In this document: in pieces, positions 6,026-55,734 of the stretch | How positions within the stretch are numbered: the stretch's first letter is position 1 | Layout of the letters: each line of letters opens with the position of its first letter | IMG/VR virus record: IMGVR_UViG_3300020718_000011 | Location: 1 to 64,000 of that record | Reading direction: 5' to 3' (one strand) | Origin: a virus | Lineage: Duplodnaviria; Heunggongvirae; Uroviricota; Caudoviricetes | DNA length: 64,000 bases | Notes under the pieces: generated by a model | Databases searched by the model: none | What the model was told of the DNA's origin: nothing | The model's input: the letters and a program-made list of their open reading frames with translations, nothing else | Made by a program: the position numbers and the translations under genes

Positions 6026-6673
6026 ATGCTAAATAAGGATTCCACAAAGGAGGAGATATACCAGGAACTCCTAAAACGTACTGGATATAAAGACGACCAA
6101 GTAATCGAGGCTTATATGTACGGGTCTCGTGTATATGGTAATTCTCGGTCTGATTCGGACTGGGATTTTATTGTTATTATTAAAGCCAACCAAATTCATA
6201 CCGAACAATTTTCAGACAATTTAATAAACGTTAATTTCTATTACTTACACCAACATCACCAGAGGATTAATGAACACGAACCTTCTGCCCTGGAGTGCGT
6301 GTTTTTACCAGAAAAATTCATTCTTAAATTAAAGGACCCAAATTTTTATAAGTCCTTTAAACCAGACCTAGTTAAATTGAGACATGCTTTTTGTGCAAAG
6401 AGCTCTAATTCCTGGGTTAAGGCAAAGAAAAAATTAACAGTACCTGAATCATATAATGATAGCGTTGGAAAGAAATCATTATGGCATGCGATCCGTATAA
6501 TCTTTTATGGCATACAAATTTCTACGGAAGGAAAAATCACTAACTATGCCTGCTGTAATGGATTCTATGACAATGTTATGTATTGTAATGACTGGAGCGA
6601 ACTTTATGAAATATACAAAACCAAGTATAATGAGACACTAACAGAATTTCGTAAACACGCCAAAAAAGAATAG
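6026..6673 (+). CDS. Pol-beta-superfamily minimal nucleotidyltransferase
   Basis: YGSRVYGNSRSDSDWDFIVII fits the GS-x9-13-DxD nucleotidyltransferase signature; 215 aa. Confidence 0.5.
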   Translation: MLNKDSTKEEIYQELLKRTGYKDDQVIEAYMYGSRVYGNSRSDSDWDFIVIIKANQIHTEQFSDNLINVNFYYLHQHHQRINEHEPSALECVFLPEKFILKLKDPNFYKSFKPDLVKLRHAFCAKSSNSWVKAKKKLTVPESYNDSVGKKSLWHAIRIIFYGIQISTEGKITNYACCNGFYDNVMYCNDWSELYEIYKTKYNETLTEFRKHAKKE

Positions 6674-12330: not shown

Positions 12331-13188
12331 ATGAAACGATTAAAGTTAGGGCTATTCGCAGCAATGGCCATCGCGTCCTTAGCAGGATGTTCCGGAGTAT
12401 CACCAGGAGGTGATGAGGAAGCAGTATTAATAGAGAAACCATGGATCTGGGGGCATGGAGGTGTTGATGATGAGCCAGTCACTTCTGGTAATTCTTGGGT
12501 GGCACTATCAACAGACGCCGTCAAGTTTAAAATTACCCCTGCTAAGTACACCGAGGAATTTGATAACTTGATGACCTCGGACAATAACCCGGTAACCTTT
12601 TCGGTGTACATTACACTCCAGGTACAAAAAGGAAAAACTCCCATACTTTATAAAGGCTGGGGCGACAAATGGTATGAGAATAGCCTACAGGCTCAGGTGC
12701 GTACGATGGTAAGAGACAAAGCCAGCCCATTCAAAATGTTTGATCTCACAACAAAAAGGGAAATTTCATCTACAATTGAGCAGGATCTTACAAAAAACAT
12801 CAATTCCCTTATTACCAGTATAAAGGATAAGGATGGTAAATCACTACCCGTTACTCTTATTAACGTAGCCGTTGGTGCTATTACTCCGCCGAAAGAGGTG
12901 ATAGATGAAACGAGCAAGACCGCTGCGCAGAACCAGGCCAAGCTTACCCAGGATGCCAGAATTGCAGTGGAGCAATCCCGTAAGAAGGCCGACATCGAAA
13001 AGGCCAATGCGGATATAGCCTATATGCAAACGATGAACTTTACACCCGACCAGTATTTACGGTTGAGGGAACTGGAAATTCGTAAGGAGACAATTGAGCT
13101 TGCCAAAGACGGTAAAGCTCCTCTATCTCTTAATGTCATAATGGGACAGGGGCAGAATATTACACCGACCGTACAGGTAGGTAAATAA
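12331..13188 (+). CDS. SPFH/band-7 domain lipoprotein
   Basis: MKRLKLGLFAAMAIASLAGCSG lipoprotein signal; C-terminal TPPKEVIDETSKTAAQNQAKL..ARIAVEQS..ADIEKANADIA resembles the SPFH/prohibitin region; GC noticeably above genome background; strong terminator follows. Confidence 0.6.
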   Translation: MKRLKLGLFAAMAIASLAGCSGVSPGGDEEAVLIEKPWIWGHGGVDDEPVTSGNSWVALSTDAVKFKITPAKYTEEFDNLMTSDNNPVTFSVYITLQVQKGKTPILYKGWGDKWYENSLQAQVRTMVRDKASPFKMFDLTTKREISSTIEQDLTKNINSLITSIKDKDGKSLPVTLINVAVGAITPPKEVIDETSKTAAQNQAKLTQDARIAVEQSRKKADIEKANADIAYMQTMNFTPDQYLRLRELEIRKETIELAKDGKAPLSLNVIMGQGQNITPTVQVGK

Positions 13189-16259: not shown

Positions 16260-16622
16260 ATGAAAATTCTAAAATTGGCTGCATTGACAGCTATAGCCGT
16301 AAATGGCTCGAACACAGCAATCCCTGAATGGGCAAAAGAAAGTATTTGGGATCTTACAACAGAAGGTTATATAGCCCCACGGGTTATTGCTGCTGTTTCG
16401 GTAGATCCCCCGGGATACGTAGTAACAGAAAAAGGGCAGAAGCTGGTATCTATGTTGGAGGCATGTTCTGACTATTTCGGGGTGCACCAGGATCTAAAAG
16501 AGGGTGCAGCAGAAGCATACTCCGCAGCCAAAGAGGATACAGGAAAAATTATTAACGAGGGAAAGAAGAAGTTTAACAGTATGTTGGATTTTCTGAAAAT
16601 TCCATTACATGAAGAAAAATGA
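16260..16622 (+). CDS. putative secreted protein
   Basis: N-terminal MKILKLAALTAIAVNGSNTA signal-like segment; TGA/ATG coupling to rtcB. Confidence 0.45.
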   Translation: MKILKLAALTAIAVNGSNTAIPEWAKESIWDLTTEGYIAPRVIAAVSVDPPGYVVTEKGQKLVSMLEACSDYFGVHQDLKEGAAEAYSAAKEDTGKIINEGKKKFNSMLDFLKIPLHEEK

Positions 16623-17836
16623 CAGAAAAACAAATTGCAGTAGATTATTTCTGCGAACCTGATAAGATTGATGAGAATGCTAAAGCCCAATTAGACCAGT
16701 ATAGTAAAATGCCGGGATTGGAGAAGCTTTGTGCTTTCCCTGACATCCACTTTTGTGACGAGAAAGCCATTCCAGTAGGTGTGGCTTTCTCTACTCGGGG
16801 TATATTCTATCCACTCGTAACCGGCAAAGATGTTGGGTGTGGTGTTGGCTATGCCCGAATAGGAAAAAAGTATTTACTAAAACCTTTTGATAAGAGCAAA
16901 CATTACAATGCTTTGGAACGGGCTCATCGTGATATGACCGACGAAGGATTGGGGGGAGGAAATCATTTTCTATCTTTGGAAGAGGATGACGAATATCTTT
17001 ATGTCATTTGCCATACTGGTACAAGGAATAGGGGTATAGCTCTTTACCAAGAAGGCTATCAAATGGTAAAAGAATACTCCAATGAAATTGGGGAGGAGGT
17101 TAAGTATGTTTCCTGGGAATGGATGAGAGAGAAACATCCAGAATACTTAATGAGCGTTTTGAGAATTCCGGATTATGCAACCAAGCGCAGGGCGGATTTC
17201 GTATTCAAAACAATAACCTTCCTTCAAAAGAATGGGTATCTGGAAAACACAAAGCCCATAGAAAAAGATTACTTGTCCCGAGATTATTGGATTAAATCAA
17301 TAATGGATGAATACCATCCTGATCTTGGTATACCAGGGAAGGAGTGGCTCCCAAAGACAAAAAGGACTCCAATTGAAATAAATGGGATACCTTATGAGTG
17401 GCATGATTCGATGCACAATCATTTAGAATTCAAAGAAGATGGATCAATAATACACAGGAAAGGAAGTACGGAAATAAATCCTGGCGATGAGGTAGCTATT
17501 CCCCTTTCGATGACCAGGGGAACATTGATAGTAAAGGTTCATCCGTTTCATGATATAACAGGAGCACTTAATTCTTGTTCTCATGGAGCAGGTAGAAAGC
17601 TATCACGATTTGATTCCATGAAACATTGGCGAACAGTACTGAAGGCTAAGGAAAGAAAAGCATATGAGGAAAGGTTTTCGGAGCTACTTGATAAGAGTGG
17701 GAAATTTCCTTCTGGATACCTCCAGGAATTTGACTACGCATACAAAGATTCGTCGGACATTCTGACGATGCAACCATATTTAAGAAAGGTAACTCAAACA
17801 ATACCTATTGTAACTATTAAATACACAGAAATCTAA
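16619..17836 (+). CDS. rtcB: RNA-splicing ligase RtcB
   Basis: GKDVGCGVGYA, GGGNHFLSLEED, ICHTGTRNRG, WHDSMHNH and SHGAGRKLSR line up with RtcB metal/GTP motifs (GvDIGCGm, GGGNHF, HSGSRG, HNhA, HGAGR); 405 aa. Confidence 0.75.
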   Translation: MTEKQIAVDYFCEPDKIDENAKAQLDQYSKMPGLEKLCAFPDIHFCDEKAIPVGVAFSTRGIFYPLVTGKDVGCGVGYARIGKKYLLKPFDKSKHYNALERAHRDMTDEGLGGGNHFLSLEEDDEYLYVICHTGTRNRGIALYQEGYQMVKEYSNEIGEEVKYVSWEWMREKHPEYLMSVLRIPDYATKRRADFVFKTITFLQKNGYLENTKPIEKDYLSRDYWIKSIMDEYHPDLGIPGKEWLPKTKRTPIEINGIPYEWHDSMHNHLEFKEDGSIIHRKGSTEINPGDEVAIPLSMTRGTLIVKVHPFHDITGALNSCSHGAGRKLSRFDSMKHWRTVLKAKERKAYEERFSELLDKSGKFPSGYLQEFDYAYKDSSDILTMQPYLRKVTQTIPIVTIKYTEI

Positions 17837-22514: not shown

Positions 22515-22838
22515 ATGGCTAAAAATAAAGAACGAATACTCTGTGCAGCTATACTTTTTAATGGAAGATTAGTAGCTGGGTATCGACATAGTGATTGCTA
22601 TGAATTAATAGAATCTTTGATCCCAGATTTAAAGTTACCAGAAAGCCTTCCTCATGGATTTCTTACATCTCATAAACGTTATGTGAGTAGGGAGGAAGGA
22701 TATTTGATTGCCAAGGAGAATGACCAATTGTTACTTAAACCAAAATTGGATGATAGAGGAGAAATACTAACCTCTGAGGATCTTTATTTTGATCCAGAGG
22801 ATTTCTTTGGATTAACAAAAAAAGTATATGTTGGTTAA
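22515..22838 (+). CDS. hypothetical protein
   Basis: 107-aa ORF. Confidence 0.45.
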   Translation: MAKNKERILCAAILFNGRLVAGYRHSDCYELIESLIPDLKLPESLPHGFLTSHKRYVSREEGYLIAKENDQLLLKPKLDDRGEILTSEDLYFDPEDFFGLTKKVYVG

Positions 22839-23656: not shown

Positions 23657-25159
23657 TTAATCATAATAGTAATCTAATACCACATTATAGGCGAGTAGAT
23701 TTCCAGTATAATTTCCATCTACATCTTTTTCTCTCCAGAAACTAATCTCTCCTCCTTGCCCTCTATTTCCTATAGAAAATGGATCGGTTATAGGAGTTCC
23801 ATCATACCAAGTAGCTCCCCAGTTTCCAGGACCGAAATATTGGATTGTTCCAGCAGGAACTGTTATTTTAAAGTAATCAGGTAGCCACTGAAAGTTAGCA
23901 ATTACCCAAACCGTTGTATCTGAGGTTCCATCTCCTCCACCAATTACTATTTCTCCTGTCCAGTGTGAATATTGGTCAATATTTGCATCTATTAGAAATC
24001 CGTCCTGTATATAAAAAGTTCTTCTTAATGTACTTATACCTTCTGTCAAATTTACTGTTCCATAAAATGGCTGGTCTAAATAAATTACATCCCAATTCCA
24101 AGGTCTCCCAGTAAATGTACCAGATACTACTTGTCCTGCTTGCAAAGCACTTACGTCTAATATAACCTGATTATTTAATTCTACTCCATTTAATGAACAG
24201 TAAGATCCATTTGAGTTTATATATGAATATCCCCTAAAAGCAGATGCCTCCATAGATATATTAGCATTAACATAATTACTTCCTCCATCCTGTGAAAGAT
24301 CATTATCCCAAAAATTATCATTATTGAAAGGAAATGGATTATCGCTATAATGTGTTGACTTATTGTTATTAGAATCCCATTCTAATGAAGGTGAGGAAGA
24401 TTGGTCTTGTCCCCAAATTCCCCCATCTAAAAAATATTTTACGTTTCCAAAATAACCAAATGACAACGGAGGGGTATCTCCAGATTCTACTACCAATGTA
24501 ATTATAGTTGTACTATAATTTGTCTGGTCTATTGTATTCATCTCATATAGGTAGATATTGGTATTGTAATCAGTATACCAATTATCTTGATATCCATTAG
24601 TAAAATTACTAATTAACGTTGTCAATAGATTTGTTGATTGGTCAAATTCTATAGTATTTGATATTTGTGTTGATCCTATCATTAGATGGAATGCCCCGCT
24701 AGTATCTCCAGAATAACCACCTATTATTATTTCCCCTGGAATATATAAGGGTCTCTTAATTAAAATATTTTGATTAACTAACCCTTGTTTTACGTCTACG
24801 TAAATTCCAGAGCCAAAATCAGAGAAGATATCAGTAATATTATATTTACCATTAGCATAAAAACCCAAATTCTCAAATTGAGAAAGTGTTAGAGGAATAT
24901 ACCCATCATAAGTTAGAATCCTCTTTGAAAGGGATCTACTATAAGTTCCATCATATAGTAGTGTTAACTGATCACTATTATTTCCATCATACCTCGCAAT
25001 TAAATTAACGTTACCATCATCTATTAATATCTGATTAGAACTTATTGAATTGACATTAGCTGATTGGACCATTATCTGAATTCCATTAGCTGGTACTAAA
25101 GTAAATGGAAATCCCGAATTAGGTGCATTGTTAATTTGATTTATTATATATGTTGGCAT
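23657..25159 (-). CDS. tail fibre / receptor-binding-like protein
   Basis: 500 aa, Asn/Gly/Ser/Thr/Tyr-rich beta-rich composition typical of fibres; in the fibre operon. Confidence 0.5.
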   Translation of the reverse strand: MPTYIINQINNAPNSGFPFTLVPANGIQIMVQSANVNSISSNQILIDDGNVNLIARYDGNNSDQLTLLYDGTYSRSLSKRILTYDGYIPLTLSQFENLGFYANGKYNITDIFSDFGSGIYVDVKQGLVNQNILIKRPLYIPGEIIIGGYSGDTSGAFHLMIGSTQISNTIEFDQSTNLLTTLISNFTNGYQDNWYTDYNTNIYLYEMNTIDQTNYSTTIITLVVESGDTPPLSFGYFGNVKYFLDGGIWGQDQSSSPSLEWDSNNNKSTHYSDNPFPFNNDNFWDNDLSQDGGSNYVNANISMEASAFRGYSYINSNGSYCSLNGVELNNQVILDVSALQAGQVVSGTFTGRPWNWDVIYLDQPFYGTVNLTEGISTLRRTFYIQDGFLIDANIDQYSHWTGEIVIGGGDGTSDTTVWVIANFQWLPDYFKITVPAGTIQYFGPGNWGATWYDGTPITDPFSIGNRGQGGEISFWREKDVDGNYTGNLLAYNVVLDYYYD

Positions 25160-25644
25160 TTTAAATGGTCATAAATTATATTCACTATATTATTTTCTTT
25201 TATACCTTTATTTGGATACTTTGCCCAGGCTAGGTTAGTTACATCTATATATAGATCATCTACTACAACCCAATTTTCTACCTCATTATTTTGTAGCCAA
25301 TTCAAGATTTCTAATTTCCTATTTTCCTGTATAGATAAACCATTAAATCTAATTATAGGAGTAAATCCTATTGGTCTTTTAATAACCCCTTGTTTTATAT
25401 AAAAATCCCCCATATAATCCAGGGATACTCCAAATCTCCAATCAGAGGATATTACTATCTCACTATTTGTTTCTTCTAATATTCGATTTAATATTTTAAC
25501 TGCATCCTTATCAAAATCTTCAAATTTATTATGGCCTTTTAATTCGGAATATGTTGGAAGACTTGTTTTCTCCCTTATGATTTCCTTATTACTAAGACAC
25601 ATAATGCCATAATGGTCAAGAAATAAAACATTCATAATTTTCAA
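25144..25644 (-). CDS. HAD-fold-like protein (motif I degenerate)
   Basis: NVLFLDHYGIM (DxDG-like, second Asp missing) and WVVVDDLYID (HAD motif IV-like); overlaps the 3' end of the Hint-containing fibre gene. Confidence 0.35.
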   Translation of the reverse strand: MKIMNVLFLDHYGIMCLSNKEIIREKTSLPTYSELKGHNKFEDFDKDAVKILNRILEETNSEIVISSDWRFGVSLDYMGDFYIKQGVIKRPIGFTPIIRFNGLSIQENRKLEILNWLQNNEVENWVVVDDLYIDVTNLAWAKYPNKGIKENNIVNIIYDHLKCQHI

Positions 25645-27442
25645 ATTTTAATAAATTGTTAACATATTTTTCTATAGCAGATAAATCAAATACTTGTTCT
25701 GCTAATCTAAGCCCTTCATAATATTTATTTGGTATGTTTTCAAATTCATTCCTTTCTCTCATATTCCTGTTATCTTTAATAAATTTCATATTCTCTATAG
25801 GGTAAATATTATTATATCTGCATGAAGTTAATATATCATTTCCAAATAGATTTATGTGACCAGAAGTAATAATATTATAGTATTCTACATCCTCATTTAT
25901 AACTTCTTTACTTATTAGTTTAATTTCTTTACTATGTGAATTGAATGTGGTTGTTCCAATTGGAGTATCCTCTGTCATGGGGTATGTAAACATCCCCCTC
26001 TCTTTATTAAAAATCCTATGTTGACTAATGGTTTTTAATTCAGTCCCGTCACTAAAGGTCAATAGGTTATATTTGTTAGAAGTTCCTGGTAATTTAATCC
26101 ATAATGGCTTTGCAGAATCAAATCTTCCTTCATCAAAGTTCCAAACCATTAATGCATCCTCATAAGTAATATCTTCAATATTCTTATAGGAATAGTTAGA
26201 AAGTAATATTCTCGTACCTTTGGCTAAACATAATTCTAATATATTAATAATACCACAATATTGATAACCACTAAGATCTAATGTAGTTCCTGATAAAACT
26301 TGATCAATATAAAGGTTTACCGAGAAGGTAGAAATAGTATTGGTTAATACACATTTAGAATAGCTAATATCTGTAGGGAATGTGAAAACGCTCATATCAT
26401 TTGAATAAGAACACTCATAATGAGAGGTATCATTATTTAAAGAAATAGTACTAAAAGACCATCCATACCCGAATCCATTAAACTCGCAGTGCATAACATC
26501 ACCTTGGTTATTATAATGACTTACATAGGAATTGTTTTTATAGGTTGCATAAATTTCACCAGAATTACTATCTGCCCAGAAATATGATGTATCCTCTACA
26601 TATATTACTATAGTTCCGCTATTATTATTCGTTTGTATTCCTGAACTAAATCCCCTAACGTGACCTTCTATAGATCCAGTATTATAAGGAGCATAATAAG
26701 CCTGATAGTTGCCATTAACATCAACAAATATACTTCCCTGGTTACTATATAGATATACGTAAGCAGATGTTCCAGTTATCGTCCCAGTTATCGTCCCAGA
26801 ATTATTTAATGTGTCTATAGTTACTTCGTAAGTATTTATAATAAAATCGTGTATATTATCATCTCCCCATTGGAAATTAGTTAAATTACTACCACCTAAT
26901 GGTATTCTATTCCCTCTCTTATCTTCTCTCCAATATAATACATCCGATCCAAAATTATATTGTACTTTATCCCAATCCAAAATATATCCTTCCGTTAAAT
27001 TAGCAGTGAGTATACTATAAGCATTTCCGTTCTGATCTGGGGGTGTACCATTTATAGAAGTAATATCAACTACTTCATAATGAGAATTGTTCCATATAAC
27101 AATATCAGCATTATTATATCCGCTCTCTGAAAGTTGTTTCCAGACACCCCTAATATTGGAAGACAATTGACCCACCAGCTGAAAATCTGCTACATAAAAA
27201 CTTGCTATTGCATTCTCATCAATCGTATTAGGGGTTGTACAAAAAGCTATTAGCCCCGCATCTCCTCTATCCGAAATAAATATATGATAACCAGCAGGCA
27301 ATAGATTATTACCCTGGGTAGTTACCCAGTTTGCATAGGTATCGCTAATGATACCACCACCAGAGGATAATAATTCAAAATTATTATCTAAATCCGCCAT
27401 AGTTAATCTTGATCCCTTATCCCTTTTTAATATTAGACTCAT
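25616..27442 (-). CDS. tail-fibre-like protein with C-terminal Hint/intein-like domain plus 68-aa C-terminal module
   Basis: N-terminal MSLILKRDKGSRLTMADLDNNFELL fibre motif; Asn-rich repeats; aa 405-540 CLAKGTRILL..DGTELKTISQHRIF..VEYYNIITSGHINLFGNDILTS-C match intein/Hint blocks A, B, F, G. Confidence 0.6.
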   Translation of the reverse strand: MSLILKRDKGSRLTMADLDNNFELLSSGGGIISDTYANWVTTQGNNLLPAGYHIFISDRGDAGLIAFCTTPNTIDENAIASFYVADFQLVGQLSSNIRGVWKQLSESGYNNADIVIWNNSHYEVVDITSINGTPPDQNGNAYSILTANLTEGYILDWDKVQYNFGSDVLYWREDKRGNRIPLGGSNLTNFQWGDDNIHDFIINTYEVTIDTLNNSGTITGTITGTSAYVYLYSNQGSIFVDVNGNYQAYYAPYNTGSIEGHVRGFSSGIQTNNNSGTIVIYVEDTSYFWADSNSGEIYATYKNNSYVSHYNNQGDVMHCEFNGFGYGWSFSTISLNNDTSHYECSYSNDMSVFTFPTDISYSKCVLTNTISTFSVNLYIDQVLSGTTLDLSGYQYCGIINILELCLAKGTRILLSNYSYKNIEDITYEDALMVWNFDEGRFDSAKPLWIKLPGTSNKYNLLTFSDGTELKTISQHRIFNKERGMFTYPMTEDTPIGTTTFNSHSKEIKLISKEVINEDVEYYNIITSGHINLFGNDILTSCRYNNIYPIENMKFIKDNRNMRERNEFENIPNKYYEGLRLAEQVFDLSAIEKYVNNLLKFENYECFIS

Positions 27443-27453
27443 TTTAACTTCTT

Positions 27454-27780
27454 TTATTTAACTACTGCCATAAAAGGGGAATTGTTTACCTTATGTCCAA
27501 TATCACCTCTAACAATATCTCCAACTTTTAATTGATAGTTAACATCGATAACAATATCACCATTAACTGTTATCTCATAATTTTTTATCATATTAACTGC
27601 ATCTTGTAATGGAATAGATATTAATTCTGCAACAAAATTAGGAAATGCTTCAATAGACAATCTCCTTGTCTTATCTGTTACCTTTGGGTAATATTTTTTA
27701 TACTTACTATTAAAATCCCTTCTTATCTGATCCTTTTGTTGGGCTTTAGATAAAATACCGGATCCATTTGAATTAGTCAT
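27454..27780 (-). CDS. small protein, possible S4-like fold
   Basis: C-terminal ITVNGDIVIDVNYQLKVGDIV resembles the S4 motif (VNG..V....L..GD.I); sits between two fibre genes. Confidence 0.3.
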   Translation of the reverse strand: MTNSNGSGILSKAQQKDQIRRDFNSKYKKYYPKVTDKTRRLSIEAFPNFVAELISIPLQDAVNMIKNYEITVNGDIVIDVNYQLKVGDIVRGDIGHKVNNSPFMAVVK

Positions 27781-29506
27781 TTATATAAGAGTAATTTATA
27801 TTCTTTAGTGTGATCTCATAATATATTGTACCACCTGTTATTGTATTTGTTGCTACTGATGCTAATATTTGTTGGTAATTATCAGCAGGATTAACAGTAT
27901 AGCTAACTTCACCATTAGACAAATCAAAATACCAAATTTTGTTATTAAGATTACTAAATACACCATTTGTTGAATTAACAATGCAAGATGAATTACCAAC
28001 ACTAAGTCCCATTGTAAATACTGGATCATCCCCATCTGCCTTAGTGCCATCTATTAATTGTATTACTCCCCTTTCTATATAAAATCCATATGGTACTGGG
28101 ATTAATGGAATAGTTACAGAACCGATTGACCCTGCTCCACTATCACCATTAAACCCGAATTGTCCTTGATATCTTATAGTATTATAATGATAGTCGGTTG
28201 ATGAAAAAGTAAGATTATTGATTGTACCAAAATCACCCATATATAAATAAAAACCTTGTAAGGATTGATTATTTATATATAAATTAGTTCCCACTATGGT
28301 ACTAAGTCCAGAACCAATAAGAGTACTCAATTCAAAACTACTACTAGTTATGTTTATTCCATAAATATAACTTCCATTGGTAGTAATACTATCCATATTA
28401 CTATTTGTTAATGTTATATTATTCCAATAACTACTATTAGTTAATTCTAAATAATAAACATTTGAATTGGATAGGGTTGTACCCTGAAAACTAGACTCAT
28501 TATTCATATTAAGATTATAAATACTTGACCCAGTAAAAGTACAATTATAAAATTGGGAATAATTATTTATTGTTATTTGGTAGATACTTGTATTTGTTAA
28601 ATTGAGTTCCCCCAGATCAGAATTATTGTTAATGGAAATATTATATAAGGATGAACTATCTATAGTAAGACCAACAATAGAAGAACCATTTGTTACTAAT
28701 ATATCTTCTAGATATGGATTACTACCAATTAATTGATATGCTCCAAAGATAGAATAGTTTAATAGTGTTATTGCTTGTATAGAACCAGTAATATTGTTTA
28801 GGCATTCAAAATAGGAGTCCTCTATATTACAAGAACCAATACCCCTTGATCCATTATAAGGATCCCCCCACCTAAAAACAGCTATTGGATTAAATCCACA
28901 AAAAAACCAGTTTCTTGTTTCATAAGTAATAGAAACTCTATTATTAGAAACAATTTCATGCCTGGATGAGATGAAGTCATCAGCAAAGTCATAGGTAATT
29001 TCATCCCATGAAATATTATAATAAGAAGATATATTATCCCCCGTCGGAGGTAGAGAAATCCAGTCAGTAGTTTCAAGAGTAAAATAATCAACACTAGTTC
29101 CAGTAGATCCTGTTAAATTTTGCCATAATGTTCCACCATAGATAACAACATCATTTATATTATAAGATCCATTATAATCCCAAACCGGAAAATTTAAATA
29201 TTGGGGATTATAAAATTGACCAATCCCATTTGGAGAAAACTGATTTGTAGATAAACCATTAATTAAAATATTAGTACCCCCATACAAAGAAATATCTACC
29301 CCTGATATTATATAAATTTGTCCTGGAATAACACTTGAATTGGATACAAGGGTTTGGGCATCAGTTAATGATAGAGAAGTTATTCCTATAAAGGAAGAAT
29401 CATCATCGGTTATATAGTTAATACAATCCCTTAAATAGGTAAAATTACCATCCATTTCCACGTATGTAAGCTTTGAACCTTTATCTTGTCTTAATATTAG
29501 ACCCAT
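27773..29506 (-). CDS. tail fibre / tailspike-like protein with Asn-rich beta-helix-type repeats
   Basis: N-terminal MGLILRQDKGSKLTYVEMDGNFTYL; long run of N-x-S/T repeat units (NISINNNSDLGELNLTNTSIYQITINNYS...). Confidence 0.55.
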   Translation of the reverse strand: MGLILRQDKGSKLTYVEMDGNFTYLRDCINYITDDDSSFIGITSLSLTDAQTLVSNSSVIPGQIYIISGVDISLYGGTNILINGLSTNQFSPNGIGQFYNPQYLNFPVWDYNGSYNINDVVIYGGTLWQNLTGSTGTSVDYFTLETTDWISLPPTGDNISSYYNISWDEITYDFADDFISSRHEIVSNNRVSITYETRNWFFCGFNPIAVFRWGDPYNGSRGIGSCNIEDSYFECLNNITGSIQAITLLNYSIFGAYQLIGSNPYLEDILVTNGSSIVGLTIDSSSLYNISINNNSDLGELNLTNTSIYQITINNYSQFYNCTFTGSSIYNLNMNNESSFQGTTLSNSNVYYLELTNSSYWNNITLTNSNMDSITTNGSYIYGINITSSSFELSTLIGSGLSTIVGTNLYINNQSLQGFYLYMGDFGTINNLTFSSTDYHYNTIRYQGQFGFNGDSGAGSIGSVTIPLIPVPYGFYIERGVIQLIDGTKADGDDPVFTMGLSVGNSSCIVNSTNGVFSNLNNKIWYFDLSNGEVSYTVNPADNYQQILASVATNTITGGTIYYEITLKNINYSYIND

Positions 29507-33995: not shown

Positions 33996-34559
33996 ATGGC
34001 AAAGACAACAAAAAACAGGAAGGCTCAAAAAGCCGAAGTAACAAAGGTTCAGTTTGACAAGGCACTTGGGGATTACAGCACTAATCTTCAAACCCTTACG
34101 GATATAACTTCCGCACGGGATGTCAAGATAAAGGCAATCATGGATGAGTATGCAGGACAGATTGGAAATCTCCAGTCAGTACAGGGTGCTCAATTTGAAA
34201 CCCTAAAGAACTTCTGCCTGCAGAACAAGGATACTCTCTTCTCCGAAAAGAAAAGGAGTATGAAAACCGCATTACTGATTCTTGGCCTACGAAAAGATAC
34301 ACCAAGTGTTGTCTTGAAAAGCGGAAAGAGGTGGGAAGATGTTATCAAGTTGATGAAGGAAAAACTTCCCGGTTTCATTCGTACCAAGGAGGAGCCCAAC
34401 AAAGATGAGATTTTGGCGAAGAGGTCAGAAATTGGCCTGCAGTTAAATGAATGCGGAATTACAATCAAGCAGGAGGAGAAATTCTTCATTACCCCAATAG
34501 GGAAAGAAGAAACTCCAATTGTAACATTGGCCCCGGAAGCGGTAGAGGAAGTAAAATAA
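33996..34559 (+). CDS. hypothetical coiled-coil protein
   Basis: 187 aa, basic N-terminus, helical-looking. Confidence 0.45.
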   Translation: MAKTTKNRKAQKAEVTKVQFDKALGDYSTNLQTLTDITSARDVKIKAIMDEYAGQIGNLQSVQGAQFETLKNFCLQNKDTLFSEKKRSMKTALLILGLRKDTPSVVLKSGKRWEDVIKLMKEKLPGFIRTKEEPNKDEILAKRSEIGLQLNECGITIKQEEKFFITPIGKEETPIVTLAPEAVEEVK

Positions 34560-41346: not shown

Positions 41347-42314
41347 TATAGGTATAGGCGTTTAGATCGCAATGCTGTAGCTTTGCCTTATGGAGAGGCG
41401 AATTACCTTTGCAGGTGTGAATTCAATTATGTTCCACCAACGGTTTAAAACAGACGACGACTGCCTGGAATATTTATCTGGCGTTAAATGGGAGAATGGA
41501 TTTAGCTGTAAGAGATGCAACAATGATAAATATTGTGCTGGTAAAAAGCCGTTCAACAGACGATGTACCAAATGTCGGTATGAGGAAAGTCCAACATCGG
41601 GTACTATGTTTGACAAGGTTAAATTTTCAATTTTAAAGGCATTTCACATTGCTTTTAAAATAAGTACAAAGAAGAAAGGGATGTCCAGTTTAGAGTTAAG
41701 CAATGAGTTTGACCTGCGCCAAAAGACTTGTTGGGAGTTTAAATGGAAACTACAGCAGGCCATGGCAAGCAGTCTAAAATACCCTTTAACAGGAACGGTA
41801 CACGTAGATGAGTGTTACATTGGGGGCCCCGAAGAGCAAAAAAGAGGTAGAAGTAAAGGCGATAAAAAACTCATTGTTTTAGTATTAGAGATTATTGATG
41901 GTGGTGTAGGCAGAGCATATGCTGAAGTGATAGAACATTCATCGGCTAAAGAATTGGGCGCATTTTTGAGGAAATATGTATCCAAGGATGCAAAGATTAT
42001 ATCGGATGAATGGCTCGGTTATACTCCCTTAAAAACAGAATTTACGAAATTGGAGCAAGTGGCATCGGATGACGGAAAAAACTTTAAAGACATACACATT
42101 CATATAATGAATATAAAAAGCTGGTTAAGAGGTATTCACCACCATTGCAGTAAGGAACGTATTCAAGGATACCTGGATGAATATCACTTTAGATATAACA
42201 GAAGACAAAAAATGGGGGTAATCTTTGATTCCCTTATAAAACGAATGGTCAAAAATGATCCAATACGCTTGTTATCAAAGGATTGATATTGCGACCTAAG
42301 TGCCTATACCTATA
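41347..42314 (+). mobile_element. IS1595-family insertion sequence (about 970 bp)
   Basis: Single transposase ORF flanked by 13-bp terminal inverted repeats TATAGGTATAGGC (41347-41359) / GCCTATACCTATA (42302-42314), and ACTA immediately outside both ends (candidate 4-bp target duplication). Confidence 0.65.
41390..42286 (+). CDS. IS1595-family transposase
   Basis: N-terminal zinc ribbon (CKRC...CTKC) and the hallmark VDECYIGGPEE (DEtyIGG) of ISXO2-like/IS1595 DDE transposases. Confidence 0.75.
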   Translation: MERRITFAGVNSIMFHQRFKTDDDCLEYLSGVKWENGFSCKRCNNDKYCAGKKPFNRRCTKCRYEESPTSGTMFDKVKFSILKAFHIAFKISTKKKGMSSLELSNEFDLRQKTCWEFKWKLQQAMASSLKYPLTGTVHVDECYIGGPEEQKRGRSKGDKKLIVLVLEIIDGGVGRAYAEVIEHSSAKELGAFLRKYVSKDAKIISDEWLGYTPLKTEFTKLEQVASDDGKNFKDIHIHIMNIKSWLRGIHHHCSKERIQGYLDEYHFRYNRRQKMGVIFDSLIKRMVKNDPIRLLSKD

Positions 42315-54921: not shown

Positions 54922-55734
54922 ATGAAAGGTTATATTTATAAAATAACAAGCCCATCTGGTAAAGTTTATATAGGTCAAACTAAAAATATTTCTAATAGGA
55001 AGAATAGTTATAAAGGATTTAATACTCCTAGCACTTCTATAAAAGCTCAAATTAAATTATATAATAGTCTTAGTAAATATGGATGGGATAATCATAAATT
55101 TGAAGTTATAGATGAATGTCAATTTTGTGGTATTAATAATTGGCTATTGGATTCTTTAGAAATTCATTGGATAAATGAATATGATAGTTTTAATAATGGA
55201 TTAAACTGTACTAAAGGTGGATCTGGCCAGTGCGGACATAAACATTCAATAGAAGCTAAACTAAAAATGGGTAACTCAATGAAGGGAAGGGTTATGTCAG
55301 AGCAAACTAAACAAAAAATAAGTAATTCAAACAAAGGAATACTTATTCACACAAAAAGAAAACCTCTTTCTGATGAGACCAAACAAAGAATAAGTAATTC
55401 AAATAAAGGAAGAACTCATGCTAAATACGAGAGAACCCCTCATTCAGAGGAAACTAAACAAAAGATGAGTAATTCTCAAAAGGGTAGGGTACCATCAGAA
55501 GAAACTAAAAAGAAAATAAGTAATTCTAAAAAAGGAACGGTATGTTCAGAAGAAACTAAACAAAAGATGAGTAATTCTCAAAAGGGTAGGGTTACATCAG
55601 AAGAAACTAAACAAAAAATAAGTAGTTCACACAAAGGAAAGAAACAAATCCCGCATTCAGAAGAAACTAAAAAGAAAATAAGTAATTCTCTTAAGTCAAA
55701 GAAAACTAATTTGAATAATCTACTTCTATTCTAA
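54922..55734 (+). CDS. GIY-YIG homing endonuclease with NUMOD3-like repeats
   Basis: MKGYIYKITSPSGKVYIGQT (GIY-YIG), KYGWDNHKFEVI, NGLNCTKGG; about 7 repeated SEETKQKISNS(N/Q)KG(R) modules; ATATATA box upstream. Confidence 0.8.
   Translation: MKGYIYKITSPSGKVYIGQTKNISNRKNSYKGFNTPSTSIKAQIKLYNSLSKYGWDNHKFEVIDECQFCGINNWLLDSLEIHWINEYDSFNNGLNCTKGGSGQCGHKHSIEAKLKMGNSMKGRVMSEQTKQKISNSNKGILIHTKRKPLSDETKQRISNSNKGRTHAKYERTPHSEETKQKMSNSQKGRVPSEETKKKISNSKKGTVCSEETKQKMSNSQKGRVTSEETKQKISSSHKGKKQIPHSEETKKKISNSLKSKKTNLNNLLLF

Follow-up and report, generated by a model that had tools for sequence, protein, structure and literature searches.

A predicted C-terminal autoprocessing cassette of Hint fold on a phage protein and its HAD-like partner

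The window analyzed here is the whole stretch of 64,000 nucleotides at positions 1 to 64,000 of IMG/VR virus record IMGVR_UViG_3300020718_000011 (Caudoviricetes), and it encodes on its minus strand a 608-amino acid precursor (25616..27442, stop codon 25616-25618). Residues 405 to 608 of this precursor probably act as a C-terminal autoprocessing cassette, composed of a Hint domain and a conserved 67-amino acid tail, that frees the 404-residue body preceding it. The body (residues 1–404; 26231..27442, minus strand) is the predicted mature product and would end at Leu404. The Hint domain (residues 405–541; 25820..26230, minus strand) begins with Cys405, the predicted thioester nucleophile, and ends T539-S540-C541; the tail comprises residues 542 to 608 (25619..25819, minus strand). 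Codon positions were verified for Cys405 (26228-26230), His475 (26018-26020), and Cys541 (25820-25822), as well as for Ser540. The precursor gene overlaps a gene for a HAD_SAK_2-family partner protein (25144..25644, minus strand; 163–166 amino acids, ATG start at 25635), and a nearby 577-amino acid paralogue of the body (27773..29506, minus strand) serves as a natural comparison without the cassette. The open reading frame and the sequence quoted in an original prediction, which was made from the DNA letters alone, were confirmed against the open reading frame list. A protein identical to the precursor is present on eight freshwater metagenome contigs, the largest of 474 kb.

Hint domains are the only protein modules known to convert a peptide bond to a reactive thioester with no need for ATP. 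Outputs described so far are protein splicing, attachment of cholesterol in Hedgehog, and ubiquitin-like conjugation that is independent of E1 and E2 enzymes.

Residues 405 to 541 adopt a Hint fold

Searches of Pfam, PHROG, NCBIfam, and PDB with the single sequence returned nothing beyond sub-threshold hints, namely a Pfam match to Hom_end_hint (E 0.04, residues 405–432) and, in PDB, a faint resemblance between block F/G and a PolB split intein; detection of the domain required a profile of the family and a predicted structure. A profile of 40 family sequences aligned end to end with the 153-amino acid Hint domain of the bacterial intein-like (BIL) domain BIL2 (6y75/6tmm; E 1.3e-3), with weaker matches to the AceL NrdHF, PI-SceI, and VMA1 inteins. 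When 40 family members were scanned with Pfam, Hom_end_hint was touched by 24, PF01079 (Hint) by 15 (best E 3e-4), PF13403 (Hint_2) by 15 (best E 0.0046), and PF07591 (PT-HINT) by one (E 0.14); all of these matches were sub-threshold, and no Pfam or NCBIfam model reached its threshold on the cassette family. The AlphaFold model of the cassette has a mean predicted local distance difference test score (pLDDT) of 92.7 and a predicted template modeling score (pTM) of 0.86. Foldseek comparison with the PDB gave BIL2 as the best match (E 3.4e-10, template modeling score 0.83) among 63 matches at E<=1e-3, and the best 50 of the 63 are all chains of the Hint superfamily (inteins, BILs, and Hedgehog). 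Since the family profile, the AlphaFold model, and Foldseek agree, the Hint fold is established; residues 405 to 541 have a genuine Hint beta-fold, an assignment far beyond chance. The original prediction of a Hint domain is thus borne out by structure and by the family profile, although a Pfam search with the single sequence, one of the checks it proposed, detects Hom_end_hint only, and below threshold. The tail is modeled as a beta-hairpin followed by three helices.

The cassette is a terminal module on unrelated bodies

A search of 5.8 billion proteins yielded 407 relatives, nearly all aligning only over residues ∼404–601, at 55 to 74% identity. In BLAST, similarity begins at residue 404/405 and extends to the C terminus of the subject. 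When a profile was run exhaustively against 1.84 billion cluster representatives (clusters at 50% identity), 825 clusters matched at E<=1e-30, a number that rose to 4,453 at E<=1e-3. Cassette-bearing proteins reach 1,926 amino acids, and in nearly all of 235 scanned proteins the cassette is C-terminal, with a median of five residues beyond it. The bodies in front of it are mutually unrelated and include Fn3, collagen, Laminin_G_3, Mtd_N, and YadA-like head regions. The tail is never present without the Hint domain and travels with it from body to body; judged by this distribution, the two are one mobile C-terminal module of ∼200 residues and not separable parts. One clear case of a large non-HAD region after the cassette was seen: P0168 (1065 amino acids) carries ∼370 amino acids of DUF285 (BspA-like) repeats beyond the tail, and may be a gene-call fusion or a truly internal cassette.

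The body of the 608-amino acid precursor looks repeat-rich and fiber- or adhesin-like. Residues 1 to 404 have no match in Pfam, PHROG, or PDB, and the tail fiber identity given in the original prediction remains inferential. Homologues of the body are P0002–P0006, of which P0006 has no cassette; its BLAST match covers body residues 3–397 and then ends. The 577-amino acid neighbor is paralogous to the body over the first ∼200 residues (BLASTP E 2e-9), contains a pentapeptide-repeat-like region with a sub-threshold Pfam score, and has no C-extein. Because the cassette is terminal and cassette-less body homologues end without a tail, the Hint domain cannot be called embedded, nor the tail a C-extein, contrary to the mini-intein arrangement considered in the original prediction.

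The probability of a bona fide (mini-)intein, which would excise itself and ligate the 404-residue body to the 67-residue tail, is therefore minimal. Such a reading could draw on the Hint fold, a Cys at position 1, and weak block A and F/G similarity. It is contradicted by the residues at the end of the Hint domain, where a terminal Asn and a +1 Cys, Ser, or Thr are lacking (residue 542 is Arg), by the terminal position, and by body homologues that stop at the junction and lack the tail, so that comparison of related proteins reveals no empty site of the intein type; the reading was rejected. A tail that never occurs without Hint and is conserved across unrelated bodies is part of the element and not of a host protein, and the cassette holds no homing endonuclease domain.

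A constant C-terminal segment behind a variable N terminus is likewise the reverse of the arrangement in polymorphic toxins, in which a pretoxin Hint would release the 67-residue segment as an effector and the downstream gene would encode its immunity protein. In favor of that scheme, the Hint domain directly precedes a C-terminal segment, and the next gene downstream is small. The lone PT-HINT match, the lack of an Asn for C-terminal cleavage, and a downstream HAD-fold gene that is conserved and can be fused to the cassette speak against it, and with the conservation pattern contradicting it this reading, too, was rejected, at a very low probability. The original prediction had described the segment, counted as 68 residues, as a separate module or releasable cargo; this fails on the constancy of the tail while the N terminus varies and on the invariance of its residues N545, R579, and E582.

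Several cassette-bearing proteins have bodies of other kinds. In P0182 (758 amino acids), a GT25 glycosyltransferase is followed by Hint, tail, and HAD-like protein in a single chain, an architecture which suggests that enzymes, and not only structural proteins, can be processed by the cassette. A bacterial subgroup carries textbook twin-arginine translocation (TAT) signals ('KLSRRDALKIIGAAAGA'); in its members P0061, P0062, P0065, P0069, P0072, P0073, P0082, P0086, and P0104 a twin-arginine signal is followed by an Ig-like region, Hint, and tail, without a HAD partner. P0061 (locus L035) lies on an ordinary-looking Chloroflexi chromosome, beside a toxin–antitoxin pair and a methylase/Vsr pair. 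Most members, the 608-amino acid protein excepted, have a motif Y-x-R-A-[YF]-A-T-N-x-x-G-T-x-Y-G at residues -15 to -9 from the catalytic Cys. In many members this motif closes a small Ig/Fn3-like domain directly before the cassette, and it would form the C-terminal end of the released product.

Conserved residues and the end of the Hint domain

Residue conservation was counted over 320 unique modules. Cys405 is kept in all 312 of those aligned at that position and His475 in all 320, and near-invariance extends to Asp429 (317/320), Trp434 (319/320), Asp437 (317/320), Thr539 (314/320), and Ser540 (317/320). Tail residues are kept just as strictly: Asn545 in 320, Tyr547 in 318, Arg579 in 317, and Glu582 in 318 modules, with N545, R579, and E582 matching the catalytic Cys in invariance. 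Block B reads T471-I-S-Q-H475. The TxxH motif named in the original prediction is thus present in its Thr and His, but with a conserved one-residue insertion, Gln474 (T-x-x-Q-H). The position of the block-F Asp is occupied by an invariant Asn523. Residue -1 is Leu404 in the 608-amino acid protein and Ile, Leu, Val, or Pro across the family.

C-terminal tips of phage fibers are commonly receptor-binding domains, and the cassette might accordingly be a Hint-fold domain that does not cleave and that, kept after maturation, serves as a binding or structural tip at the distal end. The invariance of Cys405 and His475 is hard to explain in a noncatalytic domain and favors a catalytic role. Residues of active-site type are absolutely conserved at 55 to 74% identity, whereas receptor-binding tips normally diversify, and the cassette also occurs on a glycosyltransferase and on TAT-exported bacterial proteins. 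An inert tip is accordingly considered quite unlikely and was rejected.

Position 541 is Cys in 255 of the 320 modules (80%) and otherwise Asn (15), Met (13), Ser (8), Leu (7), or Ile (6). It was read in the original prediction as a +1 Cys following the Hint domain. In the BIL2 alignment, however, Ser540-Cys541 falls on His-Asn143 of BIL2. The Drosophila Hedgehog-C sequence, verified as identical to PDB 6td6_B residues 258–471, was placed by MAFFT --add in the 119-sequence family alignment, an automated alignment at low similarity, which equates Hedgehog C1 with Cys405, His72 with His475, and C143 with Cys541, and Hedgehog N137-S-V-A-A-S-C143 with N535-D-I-L-T-S-C541. Hedgehog D46 falls on a K/R/Q column (position 451). 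When the family profile was compared with the one Hedgehog-C sequence, hhalign aligned only block A and hmmsearch did little better; the equivalence of C143 and Cys541 therefore depends on MAFFT --add together with the alignment to BIL2 and the variants that have Asn at 541. With the BIL2 and Hedgehog registers in agreement and 15 modules having Asn at 541, Cys541 is the last residue of the Hint domain and not +1, a place taken by residue 542, which is Arg in 296 of the 320 modules, including the 608-amino acid protein.

A terminal His-Asn is thus missing, as the original prediction had noted, and N-terminal cleavage rather than splicing is expected. Lacking both a terminal Asn and a +1 nucleophile, the 608-amino acid protein is excluded from canonical splicing and from Asn-driven C-terminal cleavage. 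Members with Asn at 541 (e.g., L009, L010, L012, L014, P0152, P0158, P0214, and P0230) read 'LTS-N-RFNN', like inteins and type A BILs, and could in principle cleave C-terminally too, judging by this residue.

A HAD-like partner gene

The partner matches PF18143 (HAD_SAK_2) at 68.2 bits against a cutoff of 27.5. Its reported overlap of 29 nucleotides with the 608-amino acid gene holds from a TTG start; from the ATG of the public gene call it is 20 nucleotides. Of 116 fetched cassette loci, 44 have a partner homologue on the same strand immediately after the cassette gene, corresponding to 33 of 81 nonredundant cassettes, and partner homologues never occur elsewhere in these loci. In most loci other than that of the window, the overlap is 1 to 4 nucleotides. 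Body, Hint, tail, and HAD-like protein are fused in frame in at least seven cases (P0172, P0182, P0185, P0193, P0218, and P0227, which are six distinct cluster representatives, and L082), whose junctions differ and which therefore constitute independent evidence of linkage. The partner is by far the most conserved neighbor of cassette genes, and together with the short overlaps and the fusions this upholds the dedicated partner proposed in the original prediction. Some 60% of loci have no HAD partner, including all examined TAT-type bacterial members, and for this reason the partner is regarded as accessory and not core. Distal-tail divergence differs somewhat between cassettes with and without the partner (0.39 against 0.27), a difference that is confounded by phylogeny and is not relied on.

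In HAD phosphatases, motif I is DxDx(T/V), with the D+2 residue serving as general acid/base. The partner in the window has F-L-D-H-Y-G instead of the usual DxDG, and motif I is D-H-[Y/Q/F/G]-G in 35 of 37 cassette-linked partners, with loss of the D+2 acid/base. The partners keep the nucleophile Asp and motifs II–IV (SSDW[K/R], R/E, DD). Only L093 and L094 among cassette-linked partners have a canonical DxDG (F-I-D-I-D-G), and residue 541 of their cassettes is Ile or Val. Wider HAD_SAK_2 relatives keep DxDG; none of three canonical relatives checked lies beside a Hint gene, and canonical relatives have been annotated in T4-Pnk-like genes of jumbo phages (PMC7765460). By this pattern, the partner is a specialized HAD_SAK_2 offshoot in which ordinary phosphatase activity is unlikely.

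A joined cassette–partner chain, built like the natural fusions, was modeled from an alignment in which MAFFT had misplaced the HAD N termini. Both parts fold (pLDDT 89), with a pTM of only 0.69 and no confident interface. Foldseek with this joined model gave only Hint matches among the best 50 listed.

Proposed reaction and fate of the thioester

In the proposed reaction, the Cys405 thiol would attack the Leu404 carbonyl after folding (an N-to-S acyl shift) with the assistance of Thr471 and His475, which would leave the 404-residue body linked to the cassette through a thioester. A further transfer of the acyl group may bring it to Cys541, which occupies the site of Hedgehog C143 here and in ∼80% of the family. 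A nucleophile would resolve the thioester, freeing the body, and the ∼23-kDa cassette (204 amino acids) would be discarded or recycled. Neither C-terminal cleavage nor splicing should follow, there being no terminal Asn and residue 542 being an Arg and not a +1 nucleophile. The tail and the cotranslated HAD-like protein would be accessory parts that either chaperone assembly of the body before removal or choose the nucleophile.

Several points weigh against autoprocessing of this form. We infer cleavage for every member of the family; Cys541 is absent in 20% of members, so that a relay cannot be essential to the family; and residue -1 is a bulky Leu, Ile, or Val, as compared with Gly in Hedgehog. 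The ∼60% of loci without a partner and the joined model without a confident interface count against the proposed part of the HAD-like protein.

Plain hydrolytic release is tentatively put forward as the resolving step, although it falls somewhat short of being probable; the cassette would then be a self-removing maturation or assembly module, functionally S74-like. Hydrolysis is one documented fate of a Hint thioester, in BIL cleavage (PMC4031507). It is possible, if rather doubtful, that a specific acceptor and not water resolves the thioester, in a transfer of Hog or BIL2 type by which the body would be modified at its C terminus or covalently anchored. Candidate acceptors are a small molecule bound by the tail, the HAD-like partner, or both, much as the sterol-recognition region of Hedgehog binds cholesterol, and a lysine on another virion protein, as for Tetrahymena BIL2. 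Transfer would fit the Hog-like architecture of variable cargo, a Hint domain ending in Ser-Cys, and a conserved extension of ∼65 amino acids; the closest structural relative, BIL2, makes isopeptide bonds; and for simple N-terminal cleavage a strictly conserved tail and a second cysteine are both unnecessary. A partner that keeps its nucleophile Asp and DD while lacking the D+2 acid/base fits ligand binding over turnover, and the three canonical DxDG relatives checked are not linked to Hint genes. On the other side, the acceptor is hypothetical, the Hedgehog D46 equivalent is K/R/Q, the tail is unlike the sterol-recognition region, Cys541 and the partner are each missing from part of the family, and the joined model offers no confident contact between the two proteins. 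The probability beyond hydrolysis and acceptor transfer was assigned to no cleavage or to other readings.

A prokaryotic or phage counterpart of the Hog reaction proper, in which the thioester would be relayed from Cys405 to Cys541 and then to an acceptor presented by the tail and the catalytically remodeled HAD-like partner, is improbable. If it were true, the C terminus of the fiber would be esterified to a small molecule or isopeptide-linked to a virion or cell-surface protein.

Relation to Hedgehog and other Hint families

The Hedgehog active site comprises C1, D46, T69/H72, and C143, the last of which carries the cargo as a branched thioester before attack by cholesterol (PMC12054796). 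A Hog domain consists of Hint and a sterol- or adduct-recognition region behind a variable N-terminal cargo (PMC2362128). The cassette resembles these proteins in its place at the extreme C terminus behind interchangeable cargo, in Cys1, the block-B His, and the Ser-Cys end of the Hint domain, in a conserved non-Hint extension of ∼65 amino acids after Hint (a likeness of architecture only), and in the many members that are exported or surface proteins. It differs in being prokaryotic or phage-borne, in having Leu or Ile and not Gly at residue -1, K/R/Q at the D46 equivalent, an extra Gln in block B, and no terminal Cys in 20% of members. PF01079 matches are sub-threshold, there is often a separate HAD-like partner, and no structural match or detectable similarity of the tail to the sterol-recognition region was found. 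Under the improbable reading of a Hog counterpart, the cassette family could also be the long-sought bacterial relative that gave rise to eukaryotic Hog domains. The Ser-Cys ending is relevant to the question of where the Hedgehog autoprocessing domain came from.

BILs of type A have a conserved C-terminal His-Asn (PMC4031507, PMC7765530), and Tetrahymena BIL2 makes isopeptide bonds to other proteins via the Hint thioester (PMC8616854). In contrast to type A domains such as the Clostridium thermocellum BIL and Tetrahymena BUBL BIL2, the cassette ends in Thr-Ser-Cys. As with BILs, its host proteins are variable, nonconserved, and often secreted, and cleavage rather than splicing is expected; BILs are, however, internal with C-terminal flanks, whereas the cassette is terminal with a conserved tail of its own and a partner gene. 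The cassette differs from type B, which we take to be Pfam Hint_2, in that its match to this profile is sub-threshold. Class 1 mini-inteins share the fold, the size (137 amino acids), Cys1, and recognizable blocks A, B, and F/G. Unlike inteins, the cassette has no terminal Asn, no +1 nucleophile, and Asn523 for the block-F Asp; it is not inserted in a conserved host protein, and no pair of empty and occupied sites with a C-extein was seen. PT-HINT polymorphic toxins differ from it in that the C-terminal segment of the cassette is constant and its downstream gene encodes a conserved HAD-fold protein.

Peptidase_S74 is a self-cleaving C-terminal intramolecular chaperone of phage tailspikes and fibers that uses a Ser-Lys dyad. 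Both it and the cassette are conserved C-terminal modules, self-cleaving in prospect for the latter, on otherwise unrelated phage fiber or spike proteins. The likeness is a functional analogy, since fold and chemistry are unrelated (a Cys thioester is proposed for the cassette) and Pfam scans detected no sequence or profile similarity to Peptidase_S74. No description of the cassette or its HAD linkage was found in the searchable literature, phage fiber and jumbo-phage searches giving only true inteins in terminase and RNR genes; one NCBI record labels a member merely 'Hint domain-containing protein'. The cassette represents a new subfamily of Hint domains, novel in its terminal architecture and in its partner, and it appears to work like a Hog or BIL domain while belonging to neither family.

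Members of this very large unannotated family (at least 825 clusters at 50% identity) sit on bacterial proteins exported by the TAT route and on proteins exposed at the surface of phages that are uncultivated and often huge. If the cassette only cleaves itself, phage virion proteins would undergo a new, widespread maturation step with S74 as its analogue, and 'fiber' genes bearing the cassette would be annotated and expressed differently. Were the cargo transferred, the cassette and its dedicated partner would form a new system of post-translational ligation. A compact self-cleaving tag of 200 amino acids with an optional helper protein may also be of use in biotechnology.

Genomic context and distribution

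Related cassettes were found on 88 IMG/VR contigs of up to 573 kb and in 29 GTDB species representatives, all of them metagenome-assembled genomes (MAGs); the metagenomes in which the family occurs are of freshwater, gut, and marine-sponge origin. No cassette was detected by tblastn in 50,697 deposited phage genomes. A major head protein gene (phrog_138, E 1e-99) is located ∼0.8 kb from the cassette gene in several related loci, where the cassette gene also has neighbors matching PHROG virion structural or tail fiber families. 'Virion surface protein' is a reasonable label for the 608-amino acid precursor.

The window consists of densely packed open reading frames, most of them orphans, and the genome that carries it looks like that of a huge phage. 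On either side of the precursor and partner genes are a 108-amino acid orphan with a weak S4-like match upstream (27454-27780, minus strand) and a 500-amino acid orphan downstream (23657-25159, minus strand), neither of which is conserved beside other cassette genes. Genes for an RtcB RNA ligase (16619-17836), a nucleotidyltransferase (6026-6673), an SPFH/Band-7 protein (12331-13188), Mu Gam (33996-34559), and a T4 Y16D-like protein (22515-22838), all on the plus strand, suggest an RNA-repair and end-protection set in the window. Also on the plus strand are a free-standing homing endonuclease with GIY-YIG and four NUMOD3 motifs (54922-55734; Pfam NUMOD3 E 1e-30), which is not associated with the cassette, and a DDE transposase of the IS1595 family (ISXO2-like) with a zinc ribbon (41390-42286).

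Cassette genes also occur on IMG/VR 'GVMAG' contigs, which are labeled as giant-virus MAGs (L082, L087, and L108), and a single 454-kb contig assigned to a Clostridia MAG carries two copies (L031/L032); all of these contigs may be mis-binned huge phages.

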